A DNA stretch of 64,000 nucleotides from Planctomycetota bacterium (GTDB lineage Bacteria; Planctomycetota; JACQVV01), in NCBI GenBank assembly GCA_016209595.1, contig JACQVV010000510.1, positions 852 through 64,851 of the forward strand, in the 5' to 3' direction. Under the pieces are notes generated by a model. That model ran no database searches. It saw only the letters and a program-made list of their open reading frames with translations, and was not told the DNA's origin. Of the stretch, positions 12,461 to 49,984 are shown in pieces; within the stretch, counting starts at the first letter, position 1; the number at the start of each line of letters is the position of its first letter. The translations under genes and the position numbers were made by a program.

Positions 12461-13399
12461 CTATCGTTCCTTCGACCCGGCCGCGGCGAGCGAGATTCGG
12501 AAGTCCTGGGTCCACCGCGAGAGCGGGTTGGTTTCGCCTCCGATCCGGCGGCCGGCGATCTTCGTGATCACCGCCGTCTCGATCGGCTTCCATGTCCCCT
12601 CCTTCGAGGCGCGGTCCTGGACGGCCTGGAGTGGTTCCGGGAGCGCGAACTCGGCCACCCCTTCGAGCTCGAAGCCGAACGCGGCGACCTTGGCCTGGAC
12701 GTCGGGGATCGCGTCCTCCGTGACCACGTAGAGGCTGATGTCGAAGACGCCTTGCCCCCTGCTGAAGAGGACGGGGTAGACGATGGCCTCGGAGGCGAAG
12801 GAGATGCGAAGCGGCCGGAGGCTTCCGTTCCGGACGAGCGTCGATTCGCCCTGGCCCGGCCGCACGTCCACCGCGAGCCAGACCCATCCGCGTTCGACGT
12901 ACCAGGCCATGTTCTCGGCCGGGATCTCGCCGAAGCCGTTCGCGACGAGCCACTCGCCGAGCGCCCGGGCACCCTCGGTCCCGCTCGCCCGGATAGGCTG
13001 GATCTCGTACTCGCCGACCGAGACCTTGTCGAGGAGCTCGATCCCGCCCCGCGGCACGGCGTCCTCGCCCTTCGCGCCCTGGCCGTTCCGGAGCGACTTC
13101 TCCCACGCCTGCCAGGCGTCGAACATCGACCGGAAGATCTCGACGTCCTCGACCGCATAGTCGTCGGGGACCGCCGGGACCGGGATGACCCAGGCGAGGT
13201 GCGACGGGAGCTGCCCGCCGGCGCCCGGCTCGATGCGGAAGTCGTTCTTGAGGATCAGGTGCTCGCGCCCGTCGTTGTAGAGGAGGATCGCCTCCTGCCC
13301 GCCCTGCTCCGCGCTCCCGGCGTAGTCCTTCGGGACGTGGATGCAGGCGAGGACGGGGGCGGCGGCGAAGATCGCGGCGATCGTCGTGAGGATTCTCAT
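12461..13399 (-). CDS. Secreted DUF2330-like protein
   Basis: Signal peptide, then the conserved block LILKNDFRIEPGAGGQLPSHLAWVIPVP. The family name is from memory of the FAWVxPVP signature. Paralog of 13421..14341. Confidence 0.6.
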   Translation of the reverse strand: MRILTTIAAIFAAAPVLACIHVPKDYAGSAEQGGQEAILLYNDGREHLILKNDFRIEPGAGGQLPSHLAWVIPVPAVPDDYAVEDVEIFRSMFDAWQAWEKSLRNGQGAKGEDAVPRGGIELLDKVSVGEYEIQPIRASGTEGARALGEWLVANGFGEIPAENMAWYVERGWVWLAVDVRPGQGESTLVRNGSLRPLRISFASEAIVYPVLFSRGQGVFDISLYVVTEDAIPDVQAKVAAFGFELEGVAEFALPEPLQAVQDRASKEGTWKPIETAVITKIAGRRIGGETNPLSRWTQDFRISLAAAGSKER

Positions 13400-13420: not shown

Positions 13421-14341
13421 TTACCGTGGCGTGATCTTGAAATCGTCCTTCCAGCTCGCGAGCGAGATGCGCGGCCCGTTGACGCCGCGCCCCACGACCT
13501 TGTGGACGCAGGGGCTCTCGATCGTCTTCCAGCTCCCCTCGCGGGCGGCCCTCTCCTGGATGGCCTGGACTCGCTCCGGCAGGGCGAACGAGAGGACCCC
13601 TTCGAAGGAGAAACCGTACCGGGCGACCTGCTCGCCGATGTCGGCGACCTCATCCTCGGTCACGATGTACAGGTTGACGTCGAAGGTCCCCTGGCCCGCG
13701 TTCACGAGGACCGGGTAGGCAATCTCGTCCGTCGCAAACGAGATCGAGAGCGGGCGAAGGCTGCCGTTCCGCACCAGTTCCGACTCGCCCTGCGCGAGGC
13801 GGACCTTGACGGCGAGCCAGACCCAGCCCCGTCCCGCGTACCAGGCGAGGTTTTCAGCCGGCACCTCGCCGAATCCGTTCGTGGAGAGCCAGGCGCCGAG
13901 GGCCTTCGCCCCCTCCTCGCCGCGGGCGCGGATCGGCTGGATCTCGTACTCGCCCACCTCGACCTTCTTGAGGAGCTCCATCTCCTCGCCCGCCGGCGGT
14001 CCGTCCTCTTCGAGCTCCTCCTTGCTGTTCTCGGCGAACTGCTCCTCCCAGGCGGCGAAGAGGTCGCGGAAGACCTCGACGTCCTCCACGGCGTAGGCGG
14101 AAGGCTCGCTCGGGACGGGCAGCACCCAGGCGAGGTGCGAGGGGAGCTGTCCGCTCGCCCCCGGATCGATCCGGAAGTCGTTCTTGAGGACGAGGATCTC
14201 GCGGCCGGCGTTCCAGAAGACGATCGCCTCCTGGGCGGTCTGCTCGAGCGTTCCGTCGTAGCCCCGAGGAAGGTGCTCGCAGGCGAACACCGGCGCGGCG
14301 ACGGCCGCGGCGGCGAGGATGAGCGCTGGGGTCCGTGACAT
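13421..14341 (-). CDS. Secreted DUF2330-like protein (tandem paralog)
   Basis: Internal ATG at 14341 gives MSRTPALILAAAAVAAPVFA; LVLKNDFRIDPGASGQLPSHLAWVLPVP. The upstream part of ORF 13421..14806 is Arg/Pro junk overlapping the sigma gene. Confidence 0.65.
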   Translation of the reverse strand: MSRTPALILAAAAVAAPVFACEHLPRGYDGTLEQTAQEAIVFWNAGREILVLKNDFRIDPGASGQLPSHLAWVLPVPSEPSAYAVEDVEVFRDLFAAWEEQFAENSKEELEEDGPPAGEEMELLKKVEVGEYEIQPIRARGEEGAKALGAWLSTNGFGEVPAENLAWYAGRGWVWLAVKVRLAQGESELVRNGSLRPLSISFATDEIAYPVLVNAGQGTFDVNLYIVTEDEVADIGEQVARYGFSFEGVLSFALPERVQAIQERAAREGSWKTIESPCVHKVVGRGVNGPRISLASWKDDFKITPR

Positions 14342-14358
14342 CGGTTGCTTCCTTTCTC

Positions 14359-14919
14359 TTATCGAAGTTGGTGCGGGCGGGACGCCGGCGGGTCGTCGGA
14401 TCTCGCCGGGGGCATGGTGAACGGCGTTCGCGCTTTCTTCCGAAGCCGTTCCATCGCCCGGAAGAGGGCGACGCCCACGGCGTTCGGCGTGAGGCCGAGC
14501 GCCCCGGCGATCTCCTGGTTCGAAAGCCCCTGGTAGTGGCGCGCGACCACGAGGAAGCGGTCCCGATCCGTGAGCGAGTCCAGAGAGTCGCGTAGCCGGG
14601 CCCGGTCCTCCTCGGAGTCCGCGGCGAGGACCGCCTCGCAGGGGACCTCGGGGGCCGCTTCGAGCGGGACCTCCCGGCGGCGGCGCCGCGCGCGCAGTTT
14701 CTTGAGGCAGACCCGGTCGAGGATCCCGAAGAGCCAGGGCTCGATCGGCCGCGTCCGGTCGAAGCGGTCTATTCCCCGGAAGGCGGCGACCAGGGCCTCC
14801 TGGCAAGCGTCCTCGGCCTCATGGGCGCGTCCCAGAATCCTCTCCGCGGCTCGGTACAAGGGTTTCCAGTGGCTCTCGACCAGGGTTTCCCAGCTCTCCA
14901 GGACCTCTCGTCCCTTCAC
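14359..14919 (-). CDS. ECF-type RNA polymerase sigma-70 factor
   Basis: Region 2 is EDACQEALVAAFRGIDRF...PWLFGI. Region 4 is LTDRDRFLVVARHYQGLSNQEIAGALGLTPNAVGVALFRAMERLRK. Confidence 0.9.
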   Translation of the reverse strand: MKGREVLESWETLVESHWKPLYRAAERILGRAHEAEDACQEALVAAFRGIDRFDRTRPIEPWLFGILDRVCLKKLRARRRRREVPLEAAPEVPCEAVLAADSEEDRARLRDSLDSLTDRDRFLVVARHYQGLSNQEIAGALGLTPNAVGVALFRAMERLRKKARTPFTMPPARSDDPPASRPHQLR

Positions 14920-15614: not shown

Positions 15615-18600
15615 ATGCGCGGGTCGCCAACCGACAGCGAAAGTGGAGAATCGGTCTTGGTCCCCAGGCACGACCCCGAGAGCGTCTACGCTCAGGTCCT
15701 CGCCGAGGGCGGCCTCCCGGCGAGGTTTCTCTCGCTCGTCGAGAGGGATGGGGAGAAGGTCGTGGTCGTGCGCAGGACGGATCACGCCGTCCGGGAGATC
15801 CTGGCGGCCATGGACGGCGGGGCGAGCGGCGCCGACCTGCAGGCAGGCTTCCCCGGCGTGACCTCCGAGGACGTGCGCGCGATCCTGGAACTCTCCCGGC
15901 GCGTGGACGAGATCGCGGGAAGAAGGAGCGCGTCCAGGCGGACCGTGCGGAAGCGGCCGGGTCTTGAGACGACCGAGGAGACGATCGTCGTCCCGCCGCC
16001 CCCGCCTGAGCGCCGGCGCAACCCGGGATCTGGATCGCATGCGCGATCCCGGACCGGGAGCGCCTGCGCGACCCCGGACAAGGACGTGAGGAAGCCCGTG
16101 GCGACGGGGGCGGAGCCGGAAATCGCACCGGCGGCCGGGGACCGCTACGAAATCCGCGAGGAGCTCGGTCGGGGTGGGATGGGACAGGTCCTCGTCGCCC
16201 ATGACCGCGAGCTCCGCCGCGATGTGGCTCTGAAAATCCTCCGCGAGGACCTCTCGTCCGACCCGCGCTACGCCCAGCGATTCCTGGAGGAGGCGCAGGC
16301 CTCCGCGCAGCTCGAGCACCCGAACATCGTCCCGACCTACGACTTCGGGCACCTCCCCGATGGGCGGGTCTACTTCGCGATGAAACTCGTGCGCGGGCGG
16401 ACGCTCGCCCGGGCTATCGAGGAACTCCGCGCCCAGAAGTCGCGGGCGCTGGAACGTATGCGCGACTCCGAATCTCAAGCGCATGCGCGACCCAGGACCG
16501 GGAGCGCAGGCGCGACCCCGGACAAGTACTTCGGCCTGGAGCTCCTTCTCCAGATATTCCTCAAGATGTGCGACGGCGTCGCCTACGCGCACGCCCGGGG
16601 CGTGATCCACCGCGACCTCAAGCCCGCGAACGTCATGCTCGGCGAGTTCGGCGAGGTCCTTCTCATGGACTGGGGACTGGCGAAGCTCCTGCCGCGCCGG
16701 CGCCGGCAGACGACGGGGTCGCGGAAGAGAGTCGCCCCCGATGTCCACACGCTTCGGGAGGAGTCCGACCTCGTGCTCACGCGGGACGGCGAGATCGCGG
16801 GGACCGCGCTCTACATGTCCCCCGAGCAGGCGCGCGGGGACCAGGACCACGTGGACCAGCAGTCGGACGTCTACGCCCTGGGCTCCATCCTCTACGAGAT
16901 GTTGACGCTCTCCGCGCCGTTCGAAGGAGCCGAGGGGGACGAGATCTTCGAACGGATCGCGAACGAGGACCCCGAGCCGCCCGCGAGGCGCGCTCCCGCC
17001 AGGCGGATCCCGCGCGAGCTCTCCGCGATCTGCCTGAAGGGGCTCGCGAAGGAGAAACGCGATCGCTACCGGACGGCGGCTGCCCTCCAGGAGGACATCC
17101 AGCGCTTCCTCGCCCACCAGCCGGTGCGGGCCGCTCCGGACAACCCGCTCCGGCTCGCCGGGAAGTGGGCGGTCCGCCACCCGACCCTCTCGGCCGCGGT
17201 CTCGATCGCGCTTGTCGTCTCCGCGCTCGCGGGCGCGGTCCTCAGGGTCCAGTGGACCGAGGCGAGGAACCAGAACCGGCTCCGGCTCGACGGGTATCGC
17301 GCCTCGGGCCGGGCCCATCAGGAGCGGGCCGCCGCGCTCCTCGACGAGTGTGCGGATGGCGCCGCGCGGGGCGACGTCCCACTCGAGGAGCTCCGTCTCG
17401 TCGTGCGCGAGTACGACCTCGCGCGCTCCTGGTACGAGATGCTCCGCAAGGAGGAGGAGGGGAGCGAGGCGTACGAGGCCGTCGTCCGGAGCTACCTCGG
17501 CCAGGCCCGGGCGGCGAGACTGGAAGAGATCATGAAGAAAACCCCAGGAGAGTACCCGGAGGCCGTTCGCTACCTCGAAGCGGCCCGCGCCGCGGACACC
17601 GAACGCCGCTTCGCAGGCGAGATCGACGCGGCTCTCCGCGACGCCGCCGCGATCGTGACGGTCACGCTCTCCCTCGCCCCGGCCGGCGCCACGGTCGAGG
17701 TCTTTCGGGTCGAGGGACCCTTCTGCGAGGAGACGTCCCTCTTCGAGGAGGTGGCCGGCGATTCGCCCGTTGTGCTTGACCTTGCCGCCGGGAGCTATGT
17801 CCTGGCCGCGCGCGCTCCCGGCCGGGCGCCCGCGAGGCTCCCCCTCTACCTCGAACGGTACTTCGACCGGAACCGGGAGCTCTCGCTCTCGCTTCTTCCG
17901 GCCGAGGAGGTGCCCCCCGGCTTCGTCCACGTCCCCGCCGGCTGGTTCCGCGCGGGCGAGGACGCGTCCTGGACTCGCATCGAGAAGGACTTCCTCATCG
18001 CCGAACGCGAGGTGGCCTTCGGGGAATACGTCGAGTTCTTGTCCTCCCTCCCCGAGGCGAAACGAGCGGAGTTCGCGCCGGCGGCCACGACGCTGGGCGA
18101 TCGCCAGCAGGACCTCCTCCCGGTCGTCCAGGAACTCGCCGACTGGGAGAAGTACCCTGCCGTCGGGATCTCGCTCGGGCAGGCAATTCCCTACGCGCGC
18201 TGGCGGAGCGAAGAGTCGCGCGGGGCTTTCCGCTTCCGTCTTCCGACCGACATGGAATGGGAGTATGCCGCGCGCGGCGCCGATGGCCGCCCCTATCCGT
18301 GGGGCTGGACCTTCGACCGCGAGCGCACGAACATGGCCCGGACCAAGGAGCACAACGTCAGCCTCGATGCCCTCCAGACCTGCCTCGAACACGCGGGCGG
18401 ACGTCCCGCCGGGCGTTCGGTCTTCGGGTGCCTGGAGATGGCGGGAAACGTCTCCGAATGGACCTCCACCGCGGAGCCGGACTTCGCCGTCTTCCGCGTT
18501 CGGGGCGGAGCCTTCAACTCCCCGGAGACGGGCTGCCTCACGTCCCACTACCAGGCCATGCATCAGATGGCCCAGTACACCCAGATCGGCATGCGCCTGG

Positions 18601-18620
18601 CGGCGGATGTGGCGAAGTAG
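15615..18620 (+). CDS. Ser/Thr protein kinase fused to a C-terminal FGE-sulfatase (SUMF1-like) domain
   Basis: Kinase motifs are LGRGGMGQV, VALKIL, HRDLKPANVML, DWGLAK and YMSPEQ. A TM segment (LSAAVSIALVVSALAGAV) follows. FGE motifs are VPAGWFRAG, RLPTDMEWEYAARG, YPWG, GNVSEWT and RGGAF. The N-terminal REILAAMDGGASGADLQAGFPGVTSEDVRAIL is DUF433-like. The exact start is uncertain. Confidence 0.85.
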   Translation: MRGSPTDSESGESVLVPRHDPESVYAQVLAEGGLPARFLSLVERDGEKVVVVRRTDHAVREILAAMDGGASGADLQAGFPGVTSEDVRAILELSRRVDEIAGRRSASRRTVRKRPGLETTEETIVVPPPPPERRRNPGSGSHARSRTGSACATPDKDVRKPVATGAEPEIAPAAGDRYEIREELGRGGMGQVLVAHDRELRRDVALKILREDLSSDPRYAQRFLEEAQASAQLEHPNIVPTYDFGHLPDGRVYFAMKLVRGRTLARAIEELRAQKSRALERMRDSESQAHARPRTGSAGATPDKYFGLELLLQIFLKMCDGVAYAHARGVIHRDLKPANVMLGEFGEVLLMDWGLAKLLPRRRRQTTGSRKRVAPDVHTLREESDLVLTRDGEIAGTALYMSPEQARGDQDHVDQQSDVYALGSILYEMLTLSAPFEGAEGDEIFERIANEDPEPPARRAPARRIPRELSAICLKGLAKEKRDRYRTAAALQEDIQRFLAHQPVRAAPDNPLRLAGKWAVRHPTLSAAVSIALVVSALAGAVLRVQWTEARNQNRLRLDGYRASGRAHQERAAALLDECADGAARGDVPLEELRLVVREYDLARSWYEMLRKEEEGSEAYEAVVRSYLGQARAARLEEIMKKTPGEYPEAVRYLEAARAADTERRFAGEIDAALRDAAAIVTVTLSLAPAGATVEVFRVEGPFCEETSLFEEVAGDSPVVLDLAAGSYVLAARAPGRAPARLPLYLERYFDRNRELSLSLLPAEEVPPGFVHVPAGWFRAGEDASWTRIEKDFLIAEREVAFGEYVEFLSSLPEAKRAEFAPAATTLGDRQQDLLPVVQELADWEKYPAVGISLGQAIPYARWRSEESRGAFRFRLPTDMEWEYAARGADGRPYPWGWTFDRERTNMARTKEHNVSLDALQTCLEHAGGRPAGRSVFGCLEMAGNVSEWTSTAEPDFAVFRVRGGAFNSPETGCLTSHYQAMHQMAQYTQIGMRLAADVAK
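16036..16082. repeat. 47-bp palindrome-rich repeat, copy A (in frame in the kinase linker)
   Basis: cgcatgcgcgatcccggaccgggagcgcctgcgcgaccccggacaag contains gcatgc and the tcccgg-a-ccggga inverted repeat. It encodes HARSRTGSACATPDK. Confidence 0.8.
16480..16526. repeat. 47-bp palindrome-rich repeat, copy B (in frame inside the kinase catalytic domain)
   Basis: cgcatgcgcgacccaggaccgggagcgcaggcgcgaccccggacaag; 43 of 47 positions match copy A by eye. It encodes HARPRTGSAGATPDK between the hinge region and the HRD helix. Confidence 0.8.
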
Positions 18621-22776: not shown

Positions 22777-23535
22777 GTGCAGATCCTGGAAGCGCACGGG
22801 ATCGAATCGGGCTACGGCGACGTCCAGGTCCTCTGGGGTGTGAGCCTCGCGCTCGAGGCCGGCCATGTGACCGCGCTCGTCGGTGGAAACGGCGCGGGAA
22901 AGACGACGCTCCTCTCGACGCTCGTCGGGCGGATCCGACCGCGGAGGGGCCGGATCGTTTTCCAGGGCGAGGACGTGACCCGGCTCGCCGCACACGCGAG
23001 GACCCGGCGCGGGCTCGTCCTCGTGCCCGAGGGGCGGCGCCTCTTCACCGAGATGACGGTCCTGGAGAACCTCCAGATGGGCGCGACCCCGAAGCGCGCC
23101 CGCGCGCGGATGCGCCCGAACCTCGATCGCGTCCTCGCCCTCTTCCCGCGCCTCTCGGAGCGGACCCGCCAGAAGGCCGGGACCCTCTCGGGCGGCGAGC
23201 AGCAGATGCTCGCGGTGGCGCGGGGCCTCATGTCGGAGCCGTCCCTCCTCATGGTGGACGAGCTCTCGCTCGGCCTCGCGCCCGTCCTCGCCGTGGAGCT
23301 CTTCCGCGCGCTCCTCACGCTCAAGGACGACGGGCTCTCGATCCTCCTCGTCGAGCAGAACGTCAGCCTGGCCCTGGGCGCGAGCGACCACGCCTACGTG
23401 CTCCGCGAGGGGAGGATCGAGCTCTCCGGCCCGGCGAGCGAGGTGAAGAGCGACGAGCGGGTCCGGCGGGCGTACCTCGGGATCGCCTGCGATCCAGGCC
23501 GTCCTCTCCCTCCCTCCCCGACCGCCGAAGCGTGA
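22777..23535 (+). CDS. livF: Branched-chain amino acid ABC transporter ATP-binding protein
   Basis: Walker A GGNGAGKTT, signature LSGGEQQMLAVARGL, Walker B LLMVDELSLGLAP and RRAYLGI, followed by a 16-residue tail encoded by repeat sequence. Confidence 0.9.
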   Translation: MQILEAHGIESGYGDVQVLWGVSLALEAGHVTALVGGNGAGKTTLLSTLVGRIRPRRGRIVFQGEDVTRLAAHARTRRGLVLVPEGRRLFTEMTVLENLQMGATPKRARARMRPNLDRVLALFPRLSERTRQKAGTLSGGEQQMLAVARGLMSEPSLLMVDELSLGLAPVLAVELFRALLTLKDDGLSILLVEQNVSLALGASDHAYVLREGRIELSGPASEVKSDERVRRAYLGIACDPGRPLPPSPTAEA

Positions 23536-23597
23536 GGCGGACGGATTGCGCCGGAAGGCCGCGAAGGGGCCCTCCCTCCACGACCGCCGAGGCGTGA
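23459..23597 (+). repeat. Direct repeat, left copy (livF 3' end plus truncated hairpin element)
   Basis: 139 bp matching 27316..27454 with about six mismatches by eye. It spans the livF codons RVRRAYLGI..AEA-stop and downstream sequence, and it ends exactly at ggcgtga. Confidence 0.85.
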
Positions 23598-23607
23598 CAG
23601 CGCGGCT

Positions 23608-24888: not shown

Positions 24889-24915
24889 CTCCCTGGACAC
24901 GGACTGTCCAGGGAG
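24889..24915. promoter_or_regulatory. Perfect 11-bp inverted repeat (candidate WYL-regulator operator or RBS-masking hairpin)
   Basis: ctccctggaca-cggac-tgtccagggag, read directly. It lies in the 92-bp divergent spacer, 15 nt upstream of the GTG at 24930, and overlaps the gggagg Shine-Dalgarno-like sequence. Confidence 0.45.
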
Positions 24916-27209: not shown

Positions 27210-27392
27210 CACGGTCTCATTGAGGCGGCGCGGTTCGCCGAGCGCACCCACGGGCCGGCGGCGCGGGTTGAGCGATGCGGGCCGCCGGGGCTCCTCGGGC
27301 AGGGGAAGGACGAAAGGGTCCGCCGGGCCTACCTCGGGATCGCCGGCGATCCAGGCCGCCCTCTCCCTCCCTCCCCGACCGCCGAAGCGTGA
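27210..27392 (+). pseudogene. Displaced, decayed 3' fragment of a livF-type gene
   Basis: In frame it reads ..AARFAERTHGPAARVERCGPPGLLGQGKDERVRRAYLGIAGDPGRPLPPSPTAEA-stop. This parallels the livF end ..ASDHAYVLREGRIELSGPASEVKSDERVRRAYLGIACDPGRPLPPSPTAEA-stop. There is no N-terminal ABC domain. Confidence 0.65.
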
Positions 27393-27454
27393 GGCGGACG
27401 GATTGCGCCGGAAGGCTGCGAAGGGGCCCTCCCTCCACGACTGCCGAGGCGTGA
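27316..27454 (+). repeat. Direct repeat, right copy
   Basis: Matches 23459..23597. Here it continues into gagagggagggagagg (27453..27468), the inverted partner of cctctccctccctc (27359..27372), forming a long hairpin element between convergent genes. Confidence 0.85.
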
Positions 27455-27478
27455 GAGGGAGGGAGAGGACCCGGCGCG

Positions 27479-29381: not shown

Positions 29382-29654
29382 ATGGCCCGTACGCTCGTGC
29401 TGGCCCTACTGCTGGGAGCCGTCCTCCTGGCCGTCGGCTGCCACTATTCCGATTACAGCGTCGCCTACGCCGACAAGAACACGGCCGTCTTCGTGTCCAA
29501 ACGGTCGGCGCCGCCGCCGCCGCCTCCGGCCCCGCCGCCCTACTACGGGCCCCCCCCGCACTACCCCGGAGACCAGGCTTCGGGCTTCAGGCTTCAGGGG
29601 TTGCGTTGCGGGGCCGGGAAGCCGCGTCTGAGCTGTAGGCGCCGCCCGCCGTGA
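29382..29654 (+). CDS. Small proline-rich lipoprotein
   Basis: RBS gagaggag, MARTLVLALLLGAVLLAVGC lipobox and a PPPPPPAPPPYYGPPPHYPG tract. Its last ~25 codons run through heptamer-repeat DNA. The stop overlaps the GTG start of the mega-ORF (GTGA). Confidence 0.5.
   Translation: MARTLVLALLLGAVLLAVGCHYSDYSVAYADKNTAVFVSKRSAPPPPPPAPPPYYGPPPHYPGDQASGFRLQGLRCGAGKPRLSCRRRPP
29576..29610. repeat. Tandem heptamers (ggcttcg ggcttca ggcttca) followed by ttgcg-ttgcg
   Basis: Read directly. The ttgcg units resemble the reverse complement of the tccgcaa heptamer at 6739..6759. Confidence 0.7.
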
Positions 29655-30830
29655 TACCCAGATACGACGCGATCGTCGTCGGCGCGGGCCCGGCGGGCGT
29701 CACCGCCGCGGCCGTCCTCGGCCGGAGAGGGCTTTCGGTGCTCCTCTTGGAGGCCGCGGTCTTCCCGGGGGCGGAGAACTGGTCGGGCGCGGTCTATTTC
29801 ACCGAGACCCTCGAGGACGAATCGGTGTTCGGGGCCGCCGGGCTCTCCGAGGCCCCGTTCGAGCGAAAGGTCGTCCGGAGAGGGTTCTTCTCCTCGAACG
29901 GCCACACCGTCCTCGGCGCGACGCTCGACTCGCCCGACACCTTCGCAAGCTCCTGCACCGTGCTCCGGCCGGTCTTCGACCGGTATCTCGCCGAGAAGAC
30001 CCGCGACTACGGGGTCACCCTCGTTCCGGAGACGACGGTTACGAGCCTCATCCGCGAACGCGGGCGGGTCGTGGGCGTCCACACGGAGCGGGGCCCCGCC
30101 TACGCGGACGTGGTCTTCCTCGCCGAGGGGGACGCGAGCCACCTGGTGAGCCAGGAGGGATACGAACGTCGCGGACCGGACGGGCGCTCAATCCGGCCGA
30201 AATTCCTCCAAGGCGTCCGCGAGGTGCTCCGGCTCCCGCCGTCCGAGATCGAGCGCCGCTTCGGGCTCATCCCGGGCGAGGGGGCAGCCTACGAGTTCCT
30301 GGTGAGGAACGGGGTTCGCCACGGCCGCCCGGTTCCCCTGAACCTGGGCGCCTTCCTCTACACGAACCTCGACTCTCTCTCGATCGGATACGTTCTCCCC
30401 CTCTCGAACCTCCGCGAGCACTGGGACGGCGACCACAACCAGCTTATGGAATGGTTGAAAGCCCAGGAAGTTTTCCGGCCCTGGATCGAGGGAGGGGAGA
30501 GCGCGAGTTACGGTGCGAAGCTCATCCGCGGCGGCGGCTTCCGGGAGATACCGCGGCTCGCCGCCCACGGCCTGGCGATCGGCGGCGCGGCGAGCGGGAT
30601 CGGCCTCGACTTCCCCTACCCCAACTTCACGGGGCCCGCGACGGCCATGGGGAAGCTCTTCGCCGAGGCGGTGCTCTCGATCCGGGAGTCCGGCGAGGCG
30701 TTCACCGCCGAGGCGCTCGAAGAGGAATACGTCCGGAAGCTCGAGCGGTCCCACTACTACAGGAGCGTCGAGTACCTCTCTGACTGGCCCGCCTATGTCG
30801 AGTCCACGCGGGTCTTCTTCGGATCTTCCA
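29651..30830 (+). other. Domain: FAD-dependent oxidoreductase, FixC / ETF-quinone oxidoreductase-like
   Basis: YDAIVVGAGPAGVTAAAVLGRRGLSVLLLE dinucleotide fold; later GDASHLV and LAIGGAASG. Confidence 0.7.
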
Positions 30831-33800
30831 TCGATCTCGCCAACGGGGCGGCCTACGTCCTCACCCGACCGCATCTCCCGGCTTTTCCCAAGTGGTGGGA
30901 GCTCGTCCGGGTGGTGCGGGAGGCCGTGCCGATTCGCGCCCTGCCGGCCACCCTCCGGGACGGCCTCATCCTCGCGCGCGTCTTCCGGGTGCCGGAGCTC
31001 CTCCTCGCCCATCTCCCCCGGGTCCTCGTGGCCTGGACGGTGAACTCCCTCACCGCGCTTCTGCCCGGAGGCTGGATCCCCTTCGACCGGTTCCGGGTCC
31101 ACTTCCACGTCGCGGGCGGGCGGGAGCCGGTGGCGGATCCGCCGGCGTTCGTTCGCTGGGCCGGACGGCGGATCGTGCCAGGTCTCGGGCGGGCCCTCCT
31201 TTCTGTCTACGCGAACGACGGGGCGGCGCTCCCCGAGAAGCTCCGCGCGGCTGCCCGGAGGGTCCTGGAGCGCCTTTCCTGGCTCGACCTTCTCCTCGCC
31301 TGCGGACTCGCGGTCGTCTTCGCCGTGACGGCGACGGTCCAGCGCGCCGGCGAGATCCTGCGCGCCGCCCTCGGCGGGCTTTTCGCCCTGGGCTTCCGCG
31401 GCGGCGCCGGACCCGCCGAGCGCTGTCGCGCCGCGCGCGACGCGGCGGCGGCCCTCGACGACCCCGCCCATGCCGCCGGGACGGACCTGGCGCGGAAGCT
31501 CGGCTACAACACCTACTTCCCCGGCCGCGAGAGCCACATCCAGGTCTTCCGGCCCTCCGGGATTCCCCGGCGGGGCGAGCTCGCGCGTTCCTCGCTTTTC
31601 TCCATCTGTCCGGCGAAGGTCTACGAGAAAGAGGAAAATCCGGGAGGCCCGCCGTCGGTCGCCGTCCACTTCGAGAACTGCGTGAAGTGCGAGAGCTGCT
31701 GGCGGGCGACGGACGAGGTCCACTGGAGCCGGGCAACCTCGCAACGCCTGATCTACGAAACGTACTCCCCGGCGCAGCGGAAGCTCGTCTCCTACCTCGA
31801 ATCGCGTCCGGATCCGGAACCGACTCCGCCGCCCGCGCTCGATCGCTGGGCCGACTGGCTCCTCCCACAGCGCTCGGGGCTCGATGCTTTCGCGGACTCG
31901 CTCGCGCCCGCGACGGCACTCCGCGTCGCCCGGCGCGTGAAGGAGGTTCTGGCCCGGGCATCTTCCGTGAAACGCGCCGCAAACCGGTTCGCCGAGGCGC
32001 TCTCAAAGGTCCCGCGCGTCCTCGACGAGGCACGAGCGGCCTGGCTCGCGGACCTCGCCGCCGCAGGCCGCTCGGGAGTCCTTTCCCTCGCCGAGCGGGT
32101 CCTCTCCTCACCCCTGGCGGAGCTCCGTCCGTACCTCGAAGCGCGGGCCCCCGACCATCTCTTCACGCTGGTCGGCTCGCTCGTCGAGAGGGTCGAGGAG
32201 TTCCCCCGGCTCGCCTCCGAGCGCAGGTTCTTCTGGATCGGCGTTCTTTTCCGGCAGTTGGTCGACCACCAACTCCATGGCCTCATCCTCGCGGTGTCGC
32301 CGCTCGCCATCCGGCTCGACCTTTGCGAGTCGAGGCCGCCGCGGGTGCCGGGGCTCCGGCGGACCCGATGGGACGAGCTCCGCGGCTCGCTGCGCGAGAG
32401 ACTCGCCTCGGCGTTCGACCGCGCCTCCGTGAAGGCTCTCGACGACGGGAAAGATCTCGGGGAGCCGGCCCGCGAGCTCCTCGGCCGGCTCTACGTCGAG
32501 GCGCGCCGGCTCGCCCCCTCGGACGGTTACGGACCCGGGGAGGTTCTGGTGGAGGAGCTCGCCAGGATCGACCCCTCGCTCGCGCTGTCGGTGGGAGGAC
32601 ACCAGGCGGCGGTGCGCTACCTCGATCTCCTGGGAGCTCAAGCGAGGACCGGAGACCTCGCCGAGGGTCGCGAGTGGGCGGTCCTCGTTCCCCGGCCGGG
32701 GGAACTCGTCCCGGCGGCACTTGCCGACCGATTCTGCGTTCTCTCCCCCGATGGTTCCGCCCATGTCGTTCGCAAGGACCACCCGGGACTCGCCGTGGAG
32801 CCGTGCCGGACGATCGGGGTGCGCGGGGCACGGCTCTCCCGAGTCCGATTCGACCCGGCCGCCGGGGATGTGGATTTTGCCGTTGCGGCCCCCGCCGGAT
32901 TCGTCCCGGAGGACGCGCTTCTCGCGGCATGGAGTCGCTCCTTTCTCGCCCTCGCCCTGGGCGCGGGCGAGTACCTGCTGGAACGGGCCAGAGCGCACGC
33001 GACGGGGCGCGTTCAGTTCCCGGGCGAGTTCCGCGATGAGGCCGGCCGCGAGGGGATCGCGAAGTTCGGGGCCGTGAAGGAGATGCTCGCCACGATGGAG
33101 CTCCATCGCCTCGAACTCTCGGCCCTCGCCGGAGAGGATGAGGATGAGGATCCGGGTGCGACACGGGCCGCCGTGCGCCATCTCGCTGCTGCCCTCGCGC
33201 TTTCCCCGGTCCCGGGCTCCTTCACCTACGACTCCGGACAGGTCTTCGGCGGCACCGCCTACAGCGAGGACGACGTCCTCGCGAAGTTCTACCGCGACGG
33301 CGTCGCGCTGGGACGATTGACGCCGGACGTTTCGCTCGCCAGGACGCGAATCGCGACGAGCTTCCTCGCGGGTTGGCCCGAGAACGCGAGCATGCGCGCG
33401 CTCGATGAGGCCGAGCGCTGGGGCGTGCTCGCCGGCGCCGCCCGCCGGATTCGAGAGGCGTGTGGCGTCCTCTCGGAGTGGGCCTCTCGCGCTCGCGAGT
33501 CCGCTACCCCCGACGCGGCTCTGGCCGGCGCGGTGGTTGGGGACGCGATCCTCGCGGTCCACCTCGCGCGACTTGTGGCGGTCGAGGCCCAGGAGCTGCT
33601 GGAATCGGGCCGCGCGGCCCATCTGGAGACCGAGCTCGCGCGCCTCGCGGCGGACCGGGCGCTCCCGGCCGCCCGCGCGGCCGTCCGGTCCTGGGATCTT
33701 GCCGGGCGCACCGCCTTGCTCGGACGCCGCGCGCTCGAGGGTCCGCTCTTCGAGCCGGCGGCTTCGGTTGGCGCCTGTCAGGGGGAGGGGAACAGCCCCC

Positions 33801-36800
33801 CCTTCCAACTCGGAACGCGGAACTCGGAGCTCGGAACTGAAAACAGCAGGGCGGCCTTGGCCCCAGTTCCGCATTCCGCCTTCCGCACTCCGCATTCGGG
33901 CGGCCCCCTCCCCCTTCCCAAGCGCGGGACGTACCGCGAGATCATCGAGTCGCCGGCCACCTACGACTCGGGAGAATTCCTCTCGCGGCCCTTCGACCTT
34001 GAAAGGCCCCGCTACGTTCCGGAAACGGTCGCTCGCGACGCCGATCTCTGGGACTTCCACGTCCGGACTCGTGAGTTCTACCGTTCCCAGTTCCACGGGC
34101 GGCTCTTCGACGGCTCGACCTACGGCCGGATGCTGGAACGACTCCACCGGGTTCCAGCCGCGGACCTCGCGCGCATTCAGGATCACGGCCACTTCAGGGT
34201 GTTCATTCCGCGGGAACTGGGTGGCCTCGGGCTCCCCAAGGCGTACTACTACCTGGTGATCCTCCACGCGACGCGCTGGGCCGATCCGGCGGTCTCCCTC
34301 ACGATCCAAGTCAACTCCTCGATCGGGACGACCCCGTTCCTGATCGGCCTTTCGGAGGTCCGGGAGGCCGCGCGAGATCTCGCGGCGGGAAACGCGGCGG
34401 GGTTCTTCGGAGAGATCGCGTCGCTCTTGCTCAAGGACCGGGCCCAGGACGCGCGGGAACTCCTCGCCCGTCGGTTCGGCCGCTCGCCCGTCCTGCGACA
34501 GATCTCCGGGCCCCTCCTCGACGCCCTCCGCGGAAGGGCCGGGGAGGCCTCGCGTCTCCTGGAGGCCCTGCCGGCTGCTCTCGCGGCGCGCCTGGAGGAG
34601 TGCGAGCGCCAGCGCCGGGCGCTCTCGCTCGCGCTCTCGCTTGTCTCCGCCGGGCAGGTGAGCGCGTTCGCCCTCACCGAGCCGACGGCGGGGAGCGACT
34701 CGGGCGGGGTGAAGACGACCGCCCGCCGCGAGCGCCGCCGCGTCCATGCGGATCCCGACGGGGTCCTCTGGTTCTGGCTCGACGAGGAGAGTGAGGAAAA
34801 GCGCCGGAACCTCGTGGATGCCGACCGGATCTCGACCGAGAGTCGCCGGATCCTCTACCGCTGGTCGGATTCCGAGGCGCCCGCCGAGATCCGCTTCGAC
34901 GAGTACGACTACGAGCGAGCCGGCGCCGCCGGCTGGCGCACCTACCTCCACGGCTCGCGGAAGGTCGAGATCCACGACGTCGCCCAGGTCCGGCGCGGCC
35001 CGGACGGACTCTTCTACGAGTACTACGAGCTCTCGGGCGCCAAGATGTGGATCACGAACGGCCGGTACGCGGGGCTGTTCGCCCTCTACGCGCTCACGGC
35101 GCCGGGCGAGGTCTCTGGGCTAGTGGTGGACCGCCACGCCGAGGGGCTGGTCGTCGGCGCCGACGAGGAGAAGCTCGGCCAACTGGGCTCGCCGACGAAC
35201 GAGCTCTCGCTCGACCGGGTCCGGGTCGCTGCCGAGAACCTGATCGGCGTCGCCGGCCGGGGGCAGGTGAACGCGCTGGAGACTCTGAACGTCGGCCGGA
35301 GCGGCCTCGCGATGACCTCCGTCGGGATGCTCCGCGATCTCCTCTTCTGCGACGTAGAGGACCGGCGGGGCGCCGGGGAGGCCGCGCTCCCGGCCTCGGA
35401 CCTCTTCCGCATGGGCCGTATCGTCGAGGAACTCGCGGCCTGCGATTCGCTTGCCCACGAGCTCGTCGGACTCTTCGATCACAAGGGGACGAGGAGCCTG
35501 CGGATCGAGTCGGGCGTGGCCAAACTCTTCGCGACCGAGTCGCTCGGGCTGGCGATCTCCGAGGCGGAGGAGCTCCGCGGGGAGGGTGCGGTCTCCACTC
35601 GCTTCGACCTGGAGAAGAAGCGCCGCGACCACCGCGTGCTCACGATCTACGAGGGCACGAACGAGGTGCAGCGGTTCCTCGTGCTCAAGGATCTGGTGCA
35701 GCGCGTTCTCCCGGCGTGGCGGGTTGCTCCGCCAGGAGAGCCGCCCGCGTTGAAAGGGGGAGGGGAACTGCCCCCTCCCCCTTCCTGCCGCCGGCACTCC
35801 CCTTGCGAAGCAAGGGTCGTGCCAGCGGCCCCCTCCCCTTCCTCCCCCGTGGGCGTGAATCCCGTCCACGTTGCGTTCCTGGAGAGCGCGAAAGAGCGCC
35901 TCCGCGCGCGCCTCGCGAGCGCCGTGGATCGGTTCGGAGAGGACGTCTGGCGGAATCCCTCGCTCCAGCCCTCCTTCTTCCGCCTCGCGGAGACGGCGAG
36001 CTGGATCAAGGTCGCCGATTCGGTTCTCTACCGGATGGCGAGGCTCGCGGCGATGGCCGAGCCCGGCCCTGCCGATCCGCACGGGAAAGCCGGAAACGAG
36101 ACGCGCCCCGAGGACCCTTTCCTGGAGGCAGGGGCGCTCCTGCTCGAGCGGGCGCGGATCGAGCTCGACCTCCTCGACGAGCGACACGCCCTCTCTCTTG
36201 CCTACTTGGAGGCCGGCCGCTATCCGCCGGAGATCATCGCCGCCGAGCTGGGACTGGAGGAGGCCGCGCGTCCGGGGTCGGTCCCGGTCCCGTCGCCGGC
36301 GCCGGGCGCGTTCGGACGGCCCGCGACCGTCGTGGTCGCAGTGAAGCCTGAGTTTGTGCTCGCGCCTCGCCCGCGGGTCGAAGAGGGCCGACTCGTCGAG
36401 CCGCTTCGCGCGCTGTCTCTCGCCGACCGGCGTGCGCTTTCGGTGGCGGAGAAGATCCGGGACGCGGACCCGGGCCGCATTCGCCTCGTCGTCGTCACGG
36501 CCGGCCCCCCGATCTGGGCCGAGATTCTGAGAGAGGCCGCGAGCTACGGCGCGGACGATGCCGTCCATGTGCTCGTACCGGACGGGGGCGAGGACCCGAT
36601 CGCCGCCGCCGGGTGGGTGGCGAAGGCCCTGGCGGAGCTGGGGGTCCGTCCCGATCTCGTCCTGGCTGGAGAGCGGAGCCCCGGATCGGGGAGGGGCGCC
36701 TTCGTGCCCGCGCTCGCCGAGGAGCTCTCGGCGGAGCACGCATCGGAGCTTGCGGCGGTGCTCCCCGCGCCGCCCGATCCCGCGCTGGAGGGGGGTGGAC

Positions 36801-47018: not shown

Positions 47019-48791
47019 TCAGCGCCCTTTCGCCAGCGCCTCGCGCGCTTTCTTCGCGTACTCCGTGTCGCCGTACTCGTCCACGACCTTCTGGAAGTAC
47101 TCGCGCGCCTTCGCCTCGTTGCCGTTCGCGCGCGAGTTCGTCCCCAGCGTGAAGAGCCTGCGTGCATCTTCGATTCGCCGGGCAGCCGCGACCCTCGCCT
47201 GCGCCTGGGGATCGGAGTCGATGGCCGCGAGCCGCTCCGCGGCCTGGCCGGCGAAGCGCGAGAGCGAGTGCCGCTTGACGAGGGTCTCGTACTTGCCGCG
47301 CGCCTCGAGGAGTTCGCCCTTCTTCTCGCATTCCTGGGCGCGCACCCAGACGCTCTGGGCCTCGGCGTCGGCGCGGGCCCGCGCGCCCGCGGCGAGCCGC
47401 GATGCCTCCTCTCCGAAAGATGTTCCCTCCCAGGCCCGGGCGAAGCCCTCGACCGCCGCGAGCGCCTGGGGCGTCCCGTCCCTTCGGAACGAGGCCGCGA
47501 GGCGATCGAGCTCTTCTCGCGCTCGAAGTTCGATCGCGGCTCTCGCTTCGTCGGCCCGCGTGCCCGCGGGGAGGTCGAGAGCAAGCTCGGCGAGCTCGTT
47601 CGCCTTGCGCCAGGCCTCGGCGAGACGGCCGGCCGCTTCCGCCGCGGCGCGCTCGGTCTCCAGGCTCTCCAGCTGGCGGCGGTTCCTCGCTTGTTCCTCC
47701 TTCCCTCCCGCGGCGAACGGAGCGTAGAGCGGGTCGCCCAGCACGATCGCCTGCCAGGAGAGGCAGCGGTCCGCCATCGCGAAGCTCTCGCCCAGCGTGT
47801 ATCCCGAGAGCAGCCGGTCGTAGGCAATGACCGAGATCGGGAAGCCGAGGGTGAGGGGCTCGTAAACGGTGCCGCAGGTCGCCGTCGCGCCGTGGGCGAG
47901 GAGCGGCCCGACCCAGCACTCCTTGTCCGTGCGCACGACGCCGGCTGCGAACGAGTGGAGGTGGACGGCGACGGCGCCCGGCGGGAACCGGAACTCCGGC
48001 TTCTTGAAATTGTAGGTCCCCGTGTACCAGCCGTCGTAGAGGACGACGTCGTCGAACTCGGAGAGGTCGAGAACCTCCGGCTTGTCGTCGTGGTGGAAGG
48101 GGAAGCCGTGCCTCTCCAGAACCTTGAGCGTCCCCTTCATCTCGTCGTCGCGCGCCTTGTAGCCGTCCGGGTTGGTGAGGCCGCGCGTGTCGATGTAAGC
48201 CTTGCCGGAGAGCCCGAAGCGTTCTCCGAGCAGCGCAAGGTTGACGAGCCCCTTCGCAACCTGCGCCGACGGCCCGTCGAGGCGCCCGAAGACGAGGCGC
48301 TTCACGCCGGCCGAGATCGGCTCGTCGCGGCCGTAGTACGGGTTCTCGACGAGCCCCTTCGTCTCCCAGGTTCCGCGGGGCAGGAGCGCGAGCTCCTGGT
48401 CCACCGCCGCGAAATCCCGCCCGCCGATGAAGCCCTCCCCGACTCCCTTGTCGTCAGAGCCGTCGGTCTCGGCGATCTTCACCGGGACGCCCCATGTCGT
48501 GACGAGGAACAGGACTTCGCGGTGAGCCTCGTAGAACGCCCGGACCGGCGCGAGGATCTCCCGGTCGAAGACCTCCCGCGAGATCTCCTCCTTCTCGGAG
48601 GTCGAGACCGAAACGATCATCGACTCCGGGATCCCCCGCCGCGACGCGTAGTGCCTGCCGATCTCGACCGACTCCGGCACCCGGTCGTTCACGACGACCA
48701 TGACCTGCCGCGTCACATCGACCTGGAACGGAACGTCTCCGGCAAGAGCCGGACCGGCGGAAAAGAGAACCGCGAGGAAGAGCCCATCCAT
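47019..48791 (-). CDS. TIGR03790-like secreted protein with C-terminal TPR region
   Basis: ATG at 48791 gives MDGLFLAVLFSAGPALAGD. VVVNDRVPESVEIGRHYASRRGIP, FGRLDGP, DGWYTG, VAVHLHSFAA, TCGTVYEPL and LGDPLYAPF. The family name is from memory. Confidence 0.65.
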   Translation of the reverse strand: MDGLFLAVLFSAGPALAGDVPFQVDVTRQVMVVVNDRVPESVEIGRHYASRRGIPESMIVSVSTSEKEEISREVFDREILAPVRAFYEAHREVLFLVTTWGVPVKIAETDGSDDKGVGEGFIGGRDFAAVDQELALLPRGTWETKGLVENPYYGRDEPISAGVKRLVFGRLDGPSAQVAKGLVNLALLGERFGLSGKAYIDTRGLTNPDGYKARDDEMKGTLKVLERHGFPFHHDDKPEVLDLSEFDDVVLYDGWYTGTYNFKKPEFRFPPGAVAVHLHSFAAGVVRTDKECWVGPLLAHGATATCGTVYEPLTLGFPISVIAYDRLLSGYTLGESFAMADRCLSWQAIVLGDPLYAPFAAGGKEEQARNRRQLESLETERAAAEAAGRLAEAWRKANELAELALDLPAGTRADEARAAIELRAREELDRLAASFRRDGTPQALAAVEGFARAWEGTSFGEEASRLAAGARARADAEAQSVWVRAQECEKKGELLEARGKYETLVKRHSLSRFAGQAAERLAAIDSDPQAQARVAAARRIEDARRLFTLGTNSRANGNEAKAREYFQKVVDEYGDTEYAKKAREALAKGR

Positions 48792-48829: not shown

Positions 48830-49984
48830 CTACGAGGCGCGAGCCCCCCTCGCTTCGCTCGGGGTAAACTTCACCAGCCAGCTTGCCCCGAGCGAAGCGC
48901 GGGGAAGCAGACGGGCCGTCGCCGCCCGCCCGGCGACGGGAGGGTTTCTGGATGGGCTCCAAGACCAACCCGCGAGGCATGCTGGGCTCCTGACCGTTTC
49001 AGGGCCCCCATGATACCCGCTTCGCTTCACTCCTCGAAATTCGTCCGCGAGGTTGCGGCCGTCCTCGCGCGGCTCGGCCACGAGGTCCCAGAGGCGTATC
49101 TGGGAGCGCCGGATGATCGCGAGCGCCTTCCCGCTCTCGTCGCGGTCGAGCTCGAGCATGTGCGCGAGGGCCGAGAAATCCTCCACCACCGGCGGGATGT
49201 GCGGGCCCTCGTGCTCACCCGTCCCTTTCCCGCAGGTCTCGCACGTGGGCGCCCGGAGGTCCTCGTCGATCGGGTCGGGCGGGGCGACTCCCGCCCTCGC
49301 GAGGTTTTCCATCTTGGCCTGGAGGAGAGGCACGATCGCCGGGTTGAGCAGGTAATGCGCCGGCCGCGGGAAGAGATCCACGCGCCACTCCCGCACGGTC
49401 GCGAGCTGCTTTTCCATCTCTTGCATCTTCCCGATGGGCCGGAAGAGCTCCGCCAGAAGATCTCCGAGAGAGGTCTCGAAGTCCTCGTCGCTCATCGCGC
49501 GCACGCGGAGGAACAGGGCCTTCGCGCGGGTCGTCTCGCTCGCCACGACATCGTCGGGCAACTCGCCAAGCCAGTCCCTCAGGGTCCACAGGACGAGGCG
49601 CGTCAGGCCGGCGGCGACCTGCTCCGCGTCGCGAGACGACAGCATGCGGGCGATCCGCAGCCACTCCTCGCCCGGGCCGTTGCCCGAGGCGGCCTCTCCC
49701 GCGCGAACGGGATCCCGTAGATCGTCCGGCGGGATCACACAGGGCGAAAACGTCTCCGCGACGCGCCACTGCGCCGGCGCGAGGACGGCCTTGAGTTCCT
49801 CCGCGAGCTCGGCGAGCCTGGGCATCGCGTTCTCCGGGAGCCTGCCGGCGGCAGGGGGAGCCGGGTGGAGCTCTTCTTCGACTTCCTGGGGGATCTCGCC
49901 GGTGGCGATATCGAGGCGCTCCTTCACCCGTTCGAGGGCCCGGTGGTGCCTGCGAAAGGCCGCGTCCTGGGTCCGGAGCGCCAC
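48830..49984 (-). CDS. Hypothetical protein
   Basis: 384-aa ORF with mostly ordinary composition. No motif recognised, and the last ~50 residues look like run-on. Confidence 0.45.
   Translation of the reverse strand: MALRTQDAAFRRHHRALERVKERLDIATGEIPQEVEEELHPAPPAAGRLPENAMPRLAELAEELKAVLAPAQWRVAETFSPCVIPPDDLRDPVRAGEAASGNGPGEEWLRIARMLSSRDAEQVAAGLTRLVLWTLRDWLGELPDDVVASETTRAKALFLRVRAMSDEDFETSLGDLLAELFRPIGKMQEMEKQLATVREWRVDLFPRPAHYLLNPAIVPLLQAKMENLARAGVAPPDPIDEDLRAPTCETCGKGTGEHEGPHIPPVVEDFSALAHMLELDRDESGKALAIIRRSQIRLWDLVAEPREDGRNLADEFRGVKRSGYHGGPETVRSPACLAGWSWSPSRNPPVAGRAATARLLPRASLGASWLVKFTPSEARGARAS

Follow-up and report, generated by a model that had tools for sequence, protein, structure and literature searches.

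Two copies of a GC-rich palindromic repeat family, probably mobile, lie in-frame within an anciently fused flavoprotein gene of Planctomycetota

Rickettsia palindromic elements (RPEs; Ogata et al. 2000, as summarised in PMC2229807 and PMC10969869) are 105-146 bp long, possess a terminal inverted repeat of ~12 bp and open reading frames, and leave the presence of a target-site duplication unclear; 19 in-frame insertions into conserved genes are known. [quoted passage not shown] REPs are defined as palindromes of 20-40 bp, one end of which carries an unpaired GTAG or CGTC tag; they have reportedly been found within genes, and Planctomycetes, too, have REP families (PMC3733652). Here, a stretch of 64,000 nt with a G+C content of about 70% (contig JACQVV010000510.1 of a Planctomycetota bacterium; hereafter the window) was analyzed. 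It contains a gene for a giant fused flavoprotein, in which two hairpin-forming segments, element 1 and element 2, are translated in-frame. It is highly probable that the two are copies of a dispersed, GC-rich, hairpin-forming, non-autonomous, RPE-like or MITE-like repeat family, which were inserted in-frame into a gene that was already an ancient fusion. The RPEs are the closest analogue, to which the present family is likened by its behaviour and not as a member in sequence. The features of the locus, in window positions, are as follows.

29651..38263, plus strand: host gene of the fused flavoprotein, a single unbroken open reading frame (ORF) of 2870 amino acids (aa), recognized by its Pfam domains and by fused full-length homologues
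33780..33918, plus strand: element 1, a palindromic repeat copy of the second subtype, ~138 nt, with termini as in element 2 and a different interior, in-frame as aa 1377-1423
33811..33892, plus strand: inner hairpin of element 1, ~4 tandem heptamers (CGGAACN x4) facing their inverse (NGTTCCG), an inverted repeat with 29-nt arms that are 76% complementary
35755..35843, plus strand: element 2, a palindromic repeat copy of ~89 nt, its limits set where likeness to the copies in proteins P0121, P0122, and P0123 (listed below) starts and stops
35754..35783, plus strand: hairpin 1 of element 2, AAGGGGGAGGGG-AACTGC-CCCCTCCCCCTT, with a perfect 12-bp stem and a 6-nt loop, its 5' module common with element 1
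35787..35829, plus strand: hairpin 2 of element 2, inner and subtype-specific, GCCGC.CGGCAC..TCCCCTTGC-GAA-GCAAGGG..GTGCC.GCGGC, from the minimum free energy structure
35828-35839, plus strand: C-rich tail of element 2, GGCCCCCTCCCC
35825..35843, plus strand: 3' terminal module of element 2, GCGGCCCCCTCCCCTTCC, the inverted complement of the 5' GGGGGAGGGG, common with the 3' end of element 1 (33900-33918)

Element 2 is translated as residues ~2036-2065 of the host protein (GGGELPPPPSCRRHSPCEARVVPAAPSPSS), and the translation that an initial annotation of the window had given for it, GGGELPPPPSCRRHSPCEARVVPAAPSPS, is correct and in-frame within the 2870-aa ORF. The same annotation had described the first hairpin as near-perfect; its 12-bp stem is in fact perfect. 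The nested second hairpin that it had proposed is likewise present at 35787-35829, with the core GGCAC..TCCCCTTGC-GAA-GCAAGGG..GTGCC. A 101-nt stretch comprising element 2 folds with -59.2 kcal/mol, compared to -37.6 +/- 3.2 kcal/mol for 200 dinucleotide shuffles (z = -6.8), none of which was as good. Only three loci of the window combine a perfect stem of 10 bp or more with a loop no longer than 12 nt, and element 2 is one of them. The longer, imperfect palindrome of element 1 folds with -73.8 kcal/mol (z = -3.6). The elements have a G+C content of about 70%, and neither has the composition of a gene. For the host gene, the G+C contents at the three codon positions (GC1/2/3) are 0.75/0.52/0.87, which is the usual coding signature. 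They amount to 0.77/0.70/0.67 in element 2, whose GC3 is among the lowest 1.2% of the 30-codon windows of the host gene, and to 0.67/0.63/0.78 in element 1. The signature of the host gene is thus lost within both inserts, and their composition is non-coding. Element 2 is open in all six reading frames and element 1 in five of six.

The two elements share their ends. At their outer parts, the ends of element 1 (33780-33915) pair over 11 bp around its inner hairpin; in element 2, the 12-bp terminal hairpin is complemented by a further C-rich arm, which lies at the 3' end and repeats the first. The first 20 nt of element 2 had been said to match the start of element 1 (33781-33800), and they do so at 19 of 20 positions. 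Using blastn-short, a 16-mer (GCCCCCTCCCCCTTCC) and a 14-mer (GCGGCCCCCTCCCC) were found to be exactly common to element 2 and the 3' end of element 1, and the 13-mer GGGGGAGGGGAAC matches exactly at the two element sites and nowhere else in the 64-kb window. The shared termini, GGGGGAGGGGAAC[A/T]GCCCCC at the 5' end and GCGGCCCCCTCCCC(C)TTCC at the 3' end, constitute a terminal inverted repeat of 10-12 nt; in both copies, the 5' end has GGGGGAGGGG and the 3' end CCCCTCCCCC. The earlier view that the co-occurrence of two related elements is no coincidence is borne out: they belong to one repeat family with two subtypes and common 5' and 3' termini. Their common 5' motif is translated in another frame in each of them: in element 1 the codons are (ca)G GGG GAG GGG AAC, giving QGEGN(S), and in element 2 they are GGG GGA GGG GAA CTG, giving GGGEL.

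Several other identities were considered for these structures and rejected. The coding strand between 33000 and 36500 contains no terminator-like site, and the hairpins are followed by CUUCC and not by U runs, which excludes an intrinsic terminator; promoter signals were not found on the coding strand at the elements. Matches to Rfam families stayed below the gathering score (e.g. mir-627 with 35 bits vs 86) and are microRNA-like; they were taken as chance. Programmed frameshifting was dismissed, as the AAAGGGG before hairpin 1 is out of the X_XXY_YYZ register and within the stem, and as the downstream protein stays in frame 0. For an intein or intron, the elements are too short and match no such RNA families, and, being in-frame, need no excision.

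In order to find further copies, a protein database was queried with the concatenated six-frame translations of each element; such a database is blind to intergenic copies and biased towards coding copies. Five proteins contain a copy:

P0121, galactokinase-like, partial: element-2 type, minus-strand frame 2, in the last residues GGGGGRWHDPCFARGVPAVGRGRGPFPSP, 91% identity
P0122, thiamine pyrophosphate (TPP) enzyme, partial: element-2 type, minus-strand frame 0, in the last residues, 93% identity
P0123, small permease DctQ of a TRAP transporter, complete: element-2 type, plus-strand frame 2, internal and in-frame RGRGTAPSPSSSHPLPLRSKGRASGPLPF, 83% identity
P0124, GatB: element-1 type, internal and in-frame RGRETAPSSQLGTRNSELGTENSRGALAPVPHSAFRIPHSSGPLP, E = 3e-11, 80% identity
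P0125, lipoate-protein ligase: element-1 type, internal and in-frame, 73% identity

At the peptide level, hairpin 2 is conserved in P0121 (RWHDPCFARGVPA), P0122 (GTTLASQGECRR), and P0123 (LPLRSKGRASG), each time in another frame or strand. Because copies are found in either orientation and are not all read in one frame, the elements are a repeat at the level of DNA and not a protein module. Together with the two window copies, the family comprises at least seven copies of two subtypes (~89 and ~138 nt) with common ends and differing interiors. The five proteins have neighbouring accessions (MBI4613032 to MBI4617550) and belong to one metagenome-assembled genome (MAG) of Planctomycetota with the locus-tag prefix HY720. 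The initial annotation had set absence of the element from the rest of the genome against its own proposal. Copies in other proteins, of what we infer to be the same MAG, were found; they leave the repeat standing and weaken its reading as a relic of gene fusion.

The copies in GatB and in the ligase are, by comparison with their relatives, clean in-frame insertions. Aligned with Aquifex GatB (3H0L_B), residues 8-48 of the query correspond to residues 75-115 of the chain and residues 89-455 to 111-477. The insert of ~40 aa is located at a hairpin turn directly before the conserved RxHxEEDAGK motif, and the Pfam GatB_N match in P0124 spans 266 residues for 215 profile positions. Similarly, the LplA-B_cat match in P0125 spans 107 residues for 73 profile positions. 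A search with phmmer, which needs no word index, among 1.84 billion representatives with the element 1 peptide returned the same full-length matches (P0124 and P0125) and otherwise heptad-repeat peptides (RNSELGT/IPHSAFR) from many organisms. Numerous short hypothetical proteins of unrelated organisms (P0127-P0133) are filled with peptides very similar to the heptads (RNSELGT, (I/T)PHSAFR) that stem from the interior of element 1. This suggests that heptamer-repeat hairpins are a widespread class that is routinely mistranslated by gene callers. By these matches, the interior of element 1 is a common type of simple heptamer palindrome, whereas the complete element is confined to the MAG of the five copy proteins, the inferred source of the window.

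One could assume that the palindromes were made locally in the two linkers by template switching, hairpin-primed repair or heptamer slippage and do not derive from a mobile family. Element 1 indeed has an interior, a heptamer tandem plus its inverse, of a type that arises repeatedly in many genomes, and neither a target-site duplication (two copies inspected) nor a transposase (window) was seen. However, near-identical full-length copies (73-93% at the peptide level) exist in five other genes and in both orientations, and these include the complex, non-repetitive interior of element 2. A local origin is therefore very improbable. A repeat-induced chimeric joining in a short-read MAG is a still more remote explanation, to which we give almost no credence. 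The source is evidently metagenome-assembled, and two other copies (P0121 and P0122) lie at the ends of partial proteins; their contigs apparently end in the repeat or directly behind it, which is the usual effect of a multi-copy repeat on a short-read assembly. But on either side of the elements, the flanks keep to one frame and encode one and the same homologous protein, five independent genes contain clean insertions of diverged copies, and a misassembly would break or scramble a gene instead of adding an exact multiple of three.

The age of the host gene architecture was deduced from its homologues. The protein consists of a FixC/ETF-QO-like FAD oxidoreductase, a Cys-rich ferredoxin-like segment, an acyl-CoA dehydrogenase (ACAD)-like module, a second ACAD module resembling very-long-chain acyl-CoA dehydrogenase (VLCAD), an ETF (beta-like) module, and ETF_alpha. 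Pfam recognizes the N-terminal FAD-dependent oxidoreductase (FixC/ETF-QO type), Acyl-CoA_dh_N, _M, and _1 at aa 1497-2013, the ETF domain at aa 2255-2369, and ETF_alpha at aa 2721-2805. A search in 5.8 billion proteins gave 470 matches, and lengths and identities were taken from the best 120. All of these 120 are 2409-3036 aa long and 33-45% identical, most of them at 80-100% coverage; named sources are Acidobacteriota, Planctomycetota, Gemmataceae, and Verrucomicrobiae. The same fused architecture is thus found in more than 100 homologues (33-45% identity, several phyla). Because the best 120 homologues from several phyla are all fused, the fusion is older than this lineage; judged by this distribution, it is ancient, the norm among the homologues, and far older than the lineage of the window. 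The host family is one of widespread single-chain fusions of 2,400-3,000 aa, which occurs in Acidobacteriota, Planctomycetota, and Verrucomicrobiota and which, according to its modules, would comprise the whole electron path from acyl-CoA to quinone in one polypeptide. A literature search on the ~2,800-aa fused flavoprotein family found no relevant description, and the family is apparently undescribed.

An alignment of 34 sequences, i.e. the host protein and 33 homologues, was used to locate the two segments. Both are absent from all 33 homologues. Comprising aa 1378-1426 and aa 2028-2057, they exceed all other window-specific insertions of the whole protein, the next largest of which measures 9 aa. 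Around element 1, the window protein has 106 residues compared to 51-57 in the homologues, and the element is a clean insertion of ~49 aa at a site almost without length variation. Around element 2, the window protein has 101 residues compared to 64-78 in most homologues, which corresponds to a net insertion of 30 aa in a short variable linker. Both net insertions, +90 nt for element 2 and +147 nt for element 1, are multiples of three. As the homologues are fused and yet all 33 aligned ones lack either segment, both insertions are, on this alignment, younger than the fusion.

The position of element 2 needs to be corrected in part. It had been placed at the junction of the second ACAD and EtfB, and it does lie near a module boundary. 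However, the Pfam ETF domain begins at aa 2255, ~190 residues downstream of the site, and a Foldseek search with the AlphaFold model matched VLCAD, ACAD9, and other long ACADs over ~800 columns. Therefore, element 2 lies between the ACAD core and the conserved VLCAD-like C-terminal helical domain.

These results bear directly on the history that the initial annotation had derived from the elements, namely that repeats once located between genes were caught in a mega-ORF as the neighbouring genes (ACAD, EtfB, and others) fused through loss of their stop codons. Such repeats do usually lie between genes, and both elements are found at or near boundaries of homology modules. Against such an origin, the fusion is kept in more than 100 homologues down to 33% identity, 33 of which were aligned and lack the segments. 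Furthermore, element 2 lies inside the VLCAD-like module and not at a former gene boundary, and the same elements are present in-frame in the single-domain genes of GatB, LplA, and DctQ, which were never fused. The ancient fusion without the segments and the copies within never-fused genes leave fusion by stop loss unsupported; this reading is in effect refuted and, in our estimate, has hardly any chance of being true. For the same reasons (fused homologues, 33 aligned without the segment, a site of element 2 inside the VLCAD-like ACAD module) the identification of the elements as a relic intergenic spacer was rejected.

Two AlphaFold2 models were computed from a 30-sequence alignment; the first had a mean predicted local distance difference test score (pLDDT) of 77.5 and a predicted template modelling score (pTM) of 0.77, the second a mean pLDDT of 76.6 and a pTM of 0.61. 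The sole long coil with pLDDT <50 in the first model comprises aa 2030-2065 (fragment residues 604-639) and covers aa 2036-2065 of element 2; it is flanked by a helix ending at aa 2025 and a helix starting at aa 2071. The corresponding long coil with pLDDT <50 in the second model comprises aa 1370-1423 and covers aa 1377-1423 of element 1. Both encoded peptides, which are rich in Gly, Pro, Ser, and Arg and have 30 (element 2) and 49 (element 1) residues, are thus predicted to be disordered loops between confident domains.

A linker of this protein family has also received another palindrome. The homologue P0071 (ENA ERZ27247320, L035:9678-9760) contains an unrelated, perfect in-frame palindrome (arms of 28 nt, predicted stem of 29 bp, -64.3 kcal/mol, z = -10.4). 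The encoded peptide, GEKGDRYLLCEAPSGPFRQKVPVPFF, is an insertion of ~18 aa compared to the closely related P0092 and P0102, and it is part of the linker that precedes the ETF domain. This case hints that linkers of the giant fused flavoprotein repeatedly accept palindromic elements.

The predicted location raises the question of whether the hairpins were selected for a function of the mRNA or the protein, for example for ribosome pausing at domain boundaries during co-translational folding of the 2870-aa chain, or as flexible Gly/Pro linkers. Their structures are very stable, and in the models they lie exactly between folded domains. Moreover, all five internal in-frame copies (33780-33918, 35755-35843, P0123-P0125) are co-oriented with their host genes, having the G-rich arm first on the coding strand, although both elements are open in the opposite direction, too. 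Because neither element has stops in the opposite orientation, stop codons are no explanation of this bias. However, the 5/5 orientation bias of the internal copies is not significant in this small sample (two-sided p about 0.06), and P0121 and P0122, both with the copy at the end of a partial protein, are oppositely oriented. In addition, all 33 aligned homologues manage without the elements, the same repeats occur in small single-domain enzymes that need no pausing at domain boundaries, and purifying selection alone predicts a location at such boundaries. We thus regard a selected function as improbable.

The elements were compared with known repeat systems. Like RPEs, the elements of about 90 and 140 nt are palindromic, have terminal inverted repeats and open frames, and form several subfamilies. 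They are found in-frame in unrelated conserved genes with the host ORF left intact (twice in the mega-ORF and in the genes of GatB, an LplA-family ligase, and DctQ). The encoded peptide lies outside the folded core, for the present family according to the models, and neither family displays a clear target-site duplication. Rickettsia genomes are AT-rich, and RPEs reside in an obligate intracellular alphaproteobacterium, whereas the host of the present family is a GC-rich (about 70%) environmental Planctomycetota MAG. Furthermore, ~7 copies are known here, and the CGTC tag reported for RPEs (PMC3733652) is missing. With bacterial MITEs, the family has in common that the elements are small and non-coding, with terminal inverted repeats, transcripts that form long stem-loops, subfamilies with common termini and different interiors, and occasional read-through insertions. 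Unlike for MITEs, no target-site duplication, TA termini or parent insertion sequence were identified (two DNA copies, 64-kb window), and unlike most MITE copies, which are intergenic, both window copies are intragenic. REPs and bacterial interspersed mosaic elements (BIMEs), which are mobilised by RAYT transposases (IS200/IS605-type Y1 transposases), are also G+C-rich short stem-loops, and hairpin 1 of element 2 by itself has, with 30 nt, the size of a REP. Their units of 20-40 nt differ from the composite unit of 90-140 nt seen here, and the window contains no RAYT gene. By inspection, GTAG or CGTC adjoin the stems of neither element on either strand, and an identity as REP was therefore rejected.

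On these grounds the family may have spread as MITE-like mobile DNA. Mobilisation would have occurred in trans via the terminal inverted repeats or the hairpins, since subfamilies with common termini are typical of such elements. Both copies entered a gene that was already an ancient multi-domain fusion, and being almost free of stops and a multiple of three in length, they would be read through and add loops. The elements would be neutral or near-neutral passengers, and purifying selection would let copies survive only in permissive linkers and loops with a tolerated length (a multiple of three, no stops). The loops would lie at domain boundaries because insertions elsewhere would be removed by selection.

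A number of observations weigh against insertion of mobile repeats. Apart from the match of the two elements with each other, blastn-short with a word size of 7 found no further copies in the 64-kb window including its intergenic DNA. Two copies thus reside in one gene of 8.6 kb and none in the ~10 kb of non-coding DNA of the window, and two copies in one gene are more than uniform random insertion predicts, unless linkers are strongly favoured or transposition is local. Inspection of the flanks of the two DNA copies (TGTCA|...|TTCCCAAG and TTGAAA|...|TTCCTCCC) yielded no direct repeat that would indicate a target-site duplication, with no empty site at hand for comparison. Pfam scans of 36 window ORFs (64 kb) detected no transposase, integrase or RAYT. 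The pattern GGGGGAGGGGAACNGCCCCC gave 13 loci in 185,579 species genomes and 21 loci in the JGI metagenomes, two collections that do not contain the window's contig, and all of these were isolated chance matches without extended similarity. The DNA is at hand for two copies, and the other five are known as peptides; the MAG encoding them is probably the window's own genome. Mobility is deduced from the distribution of the copies and their shared termini. The insertion of copies of a mobile repeat family nevertheless remains by far the most probable reading.

The window contains further repeats and palindromes. The Ser/Thr kinase gene at 15615-18620 (plus strand) has a direct repeat of ~100 nt (15978-16085 and 16422-16529, about 78% identity) with an internal 25-nt period. 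It is read in-frame twice, as RRRNPGSGSHARSRTGSACATPDKD before the kinase domain and as RMRDSESQAHARPRTGSAGATPDKY inside it. The Pfam Pkinase match takes 316 residues to cover 260 profile positions, and the repeat may represent a further family of in-frame repeats. A second direct repeat of 154 nt (93% identity) is located at 23452-23605 and 27309-27462, with ~3.9 kb in between, and an ABC ATPase gene extends with its 3' end into the first copy. Between the copies lie genes of an AAA ATPase, a WYL/WCX regulator, and a PIN-domain protein as well as a small ORF. This arrangement resembles a small integrated island with a duplication of att type, but no integrase was seen. A strong, imperfect intergenic hairpin at 48843-48907 (25-nt arms, 88% complementary, -45.3 kcal/mol, z = -7.1) is unrelated to elements 1 and 2. 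It lies directly upstream of the site (MDGLFLAV...) at which the minus-strand gene ending at 47019 probably has its true start. The only other perfect hairpins of the window with stems of at least 10 bp are found at 43781-43810 and 24889-24915. The former has a 13-bp stem (CGCCGCCCTTCCC/GGGAAGGGCGGCG) near the 5' end of a radical-SAM/DUF3641 ORF; the latter, possibly an operator, is a palindrome of 11 bp located between the AAA-ATPase and WYL genes, which are divergent. Finally, two tandem DUF2330 paralogues on the minus strand (12461-13399 and 13421-14806) are 69-73% identical in DNA over stretches of ~300 nt.

Repeats of this kind fragment MAG assemblies, and they can mislead the inference of gene-fusion histories, as in the present case. 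A more far-reaching interpretation would place the family beside the Rickettsia RPEs as a second and independent system of protein-coding palindromes of this type, hosted by a GC-rich, free-living lineage of the Planctomycetota; the family would preferentially enter coding sequence or persist in it and be orientation-biased to transcription. We consider this rather unlikely, with some chance of being correct. If true, either the insertion mechanism would be linked to the transcription or replication of genes, or the hairpins of the mRNA or the Gly/Pro loops would have a selected role at domain boundaries; gatB, a housekeeping gene, and, twice, the giant flavoprotein gene would be among its targets; and the palindrome of P0071 would suggest that the linkers of giant fusion proteins are recurrent landing pads. 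Rickettsia is the best-known source of in-frame palindromic repeats, with scattered MITE and REP cases elsewhere; the same behaviour in a presumably sequence-unrelated, GC-rich family of an uncultured Planctomycetota genome would make the phenomenon more general, and the repeat copies would map sites that tolerate insertions of 30-50 residues in GatB, lipoate ligase, a TRAP permease, and the 2870-aa flavoprotein.

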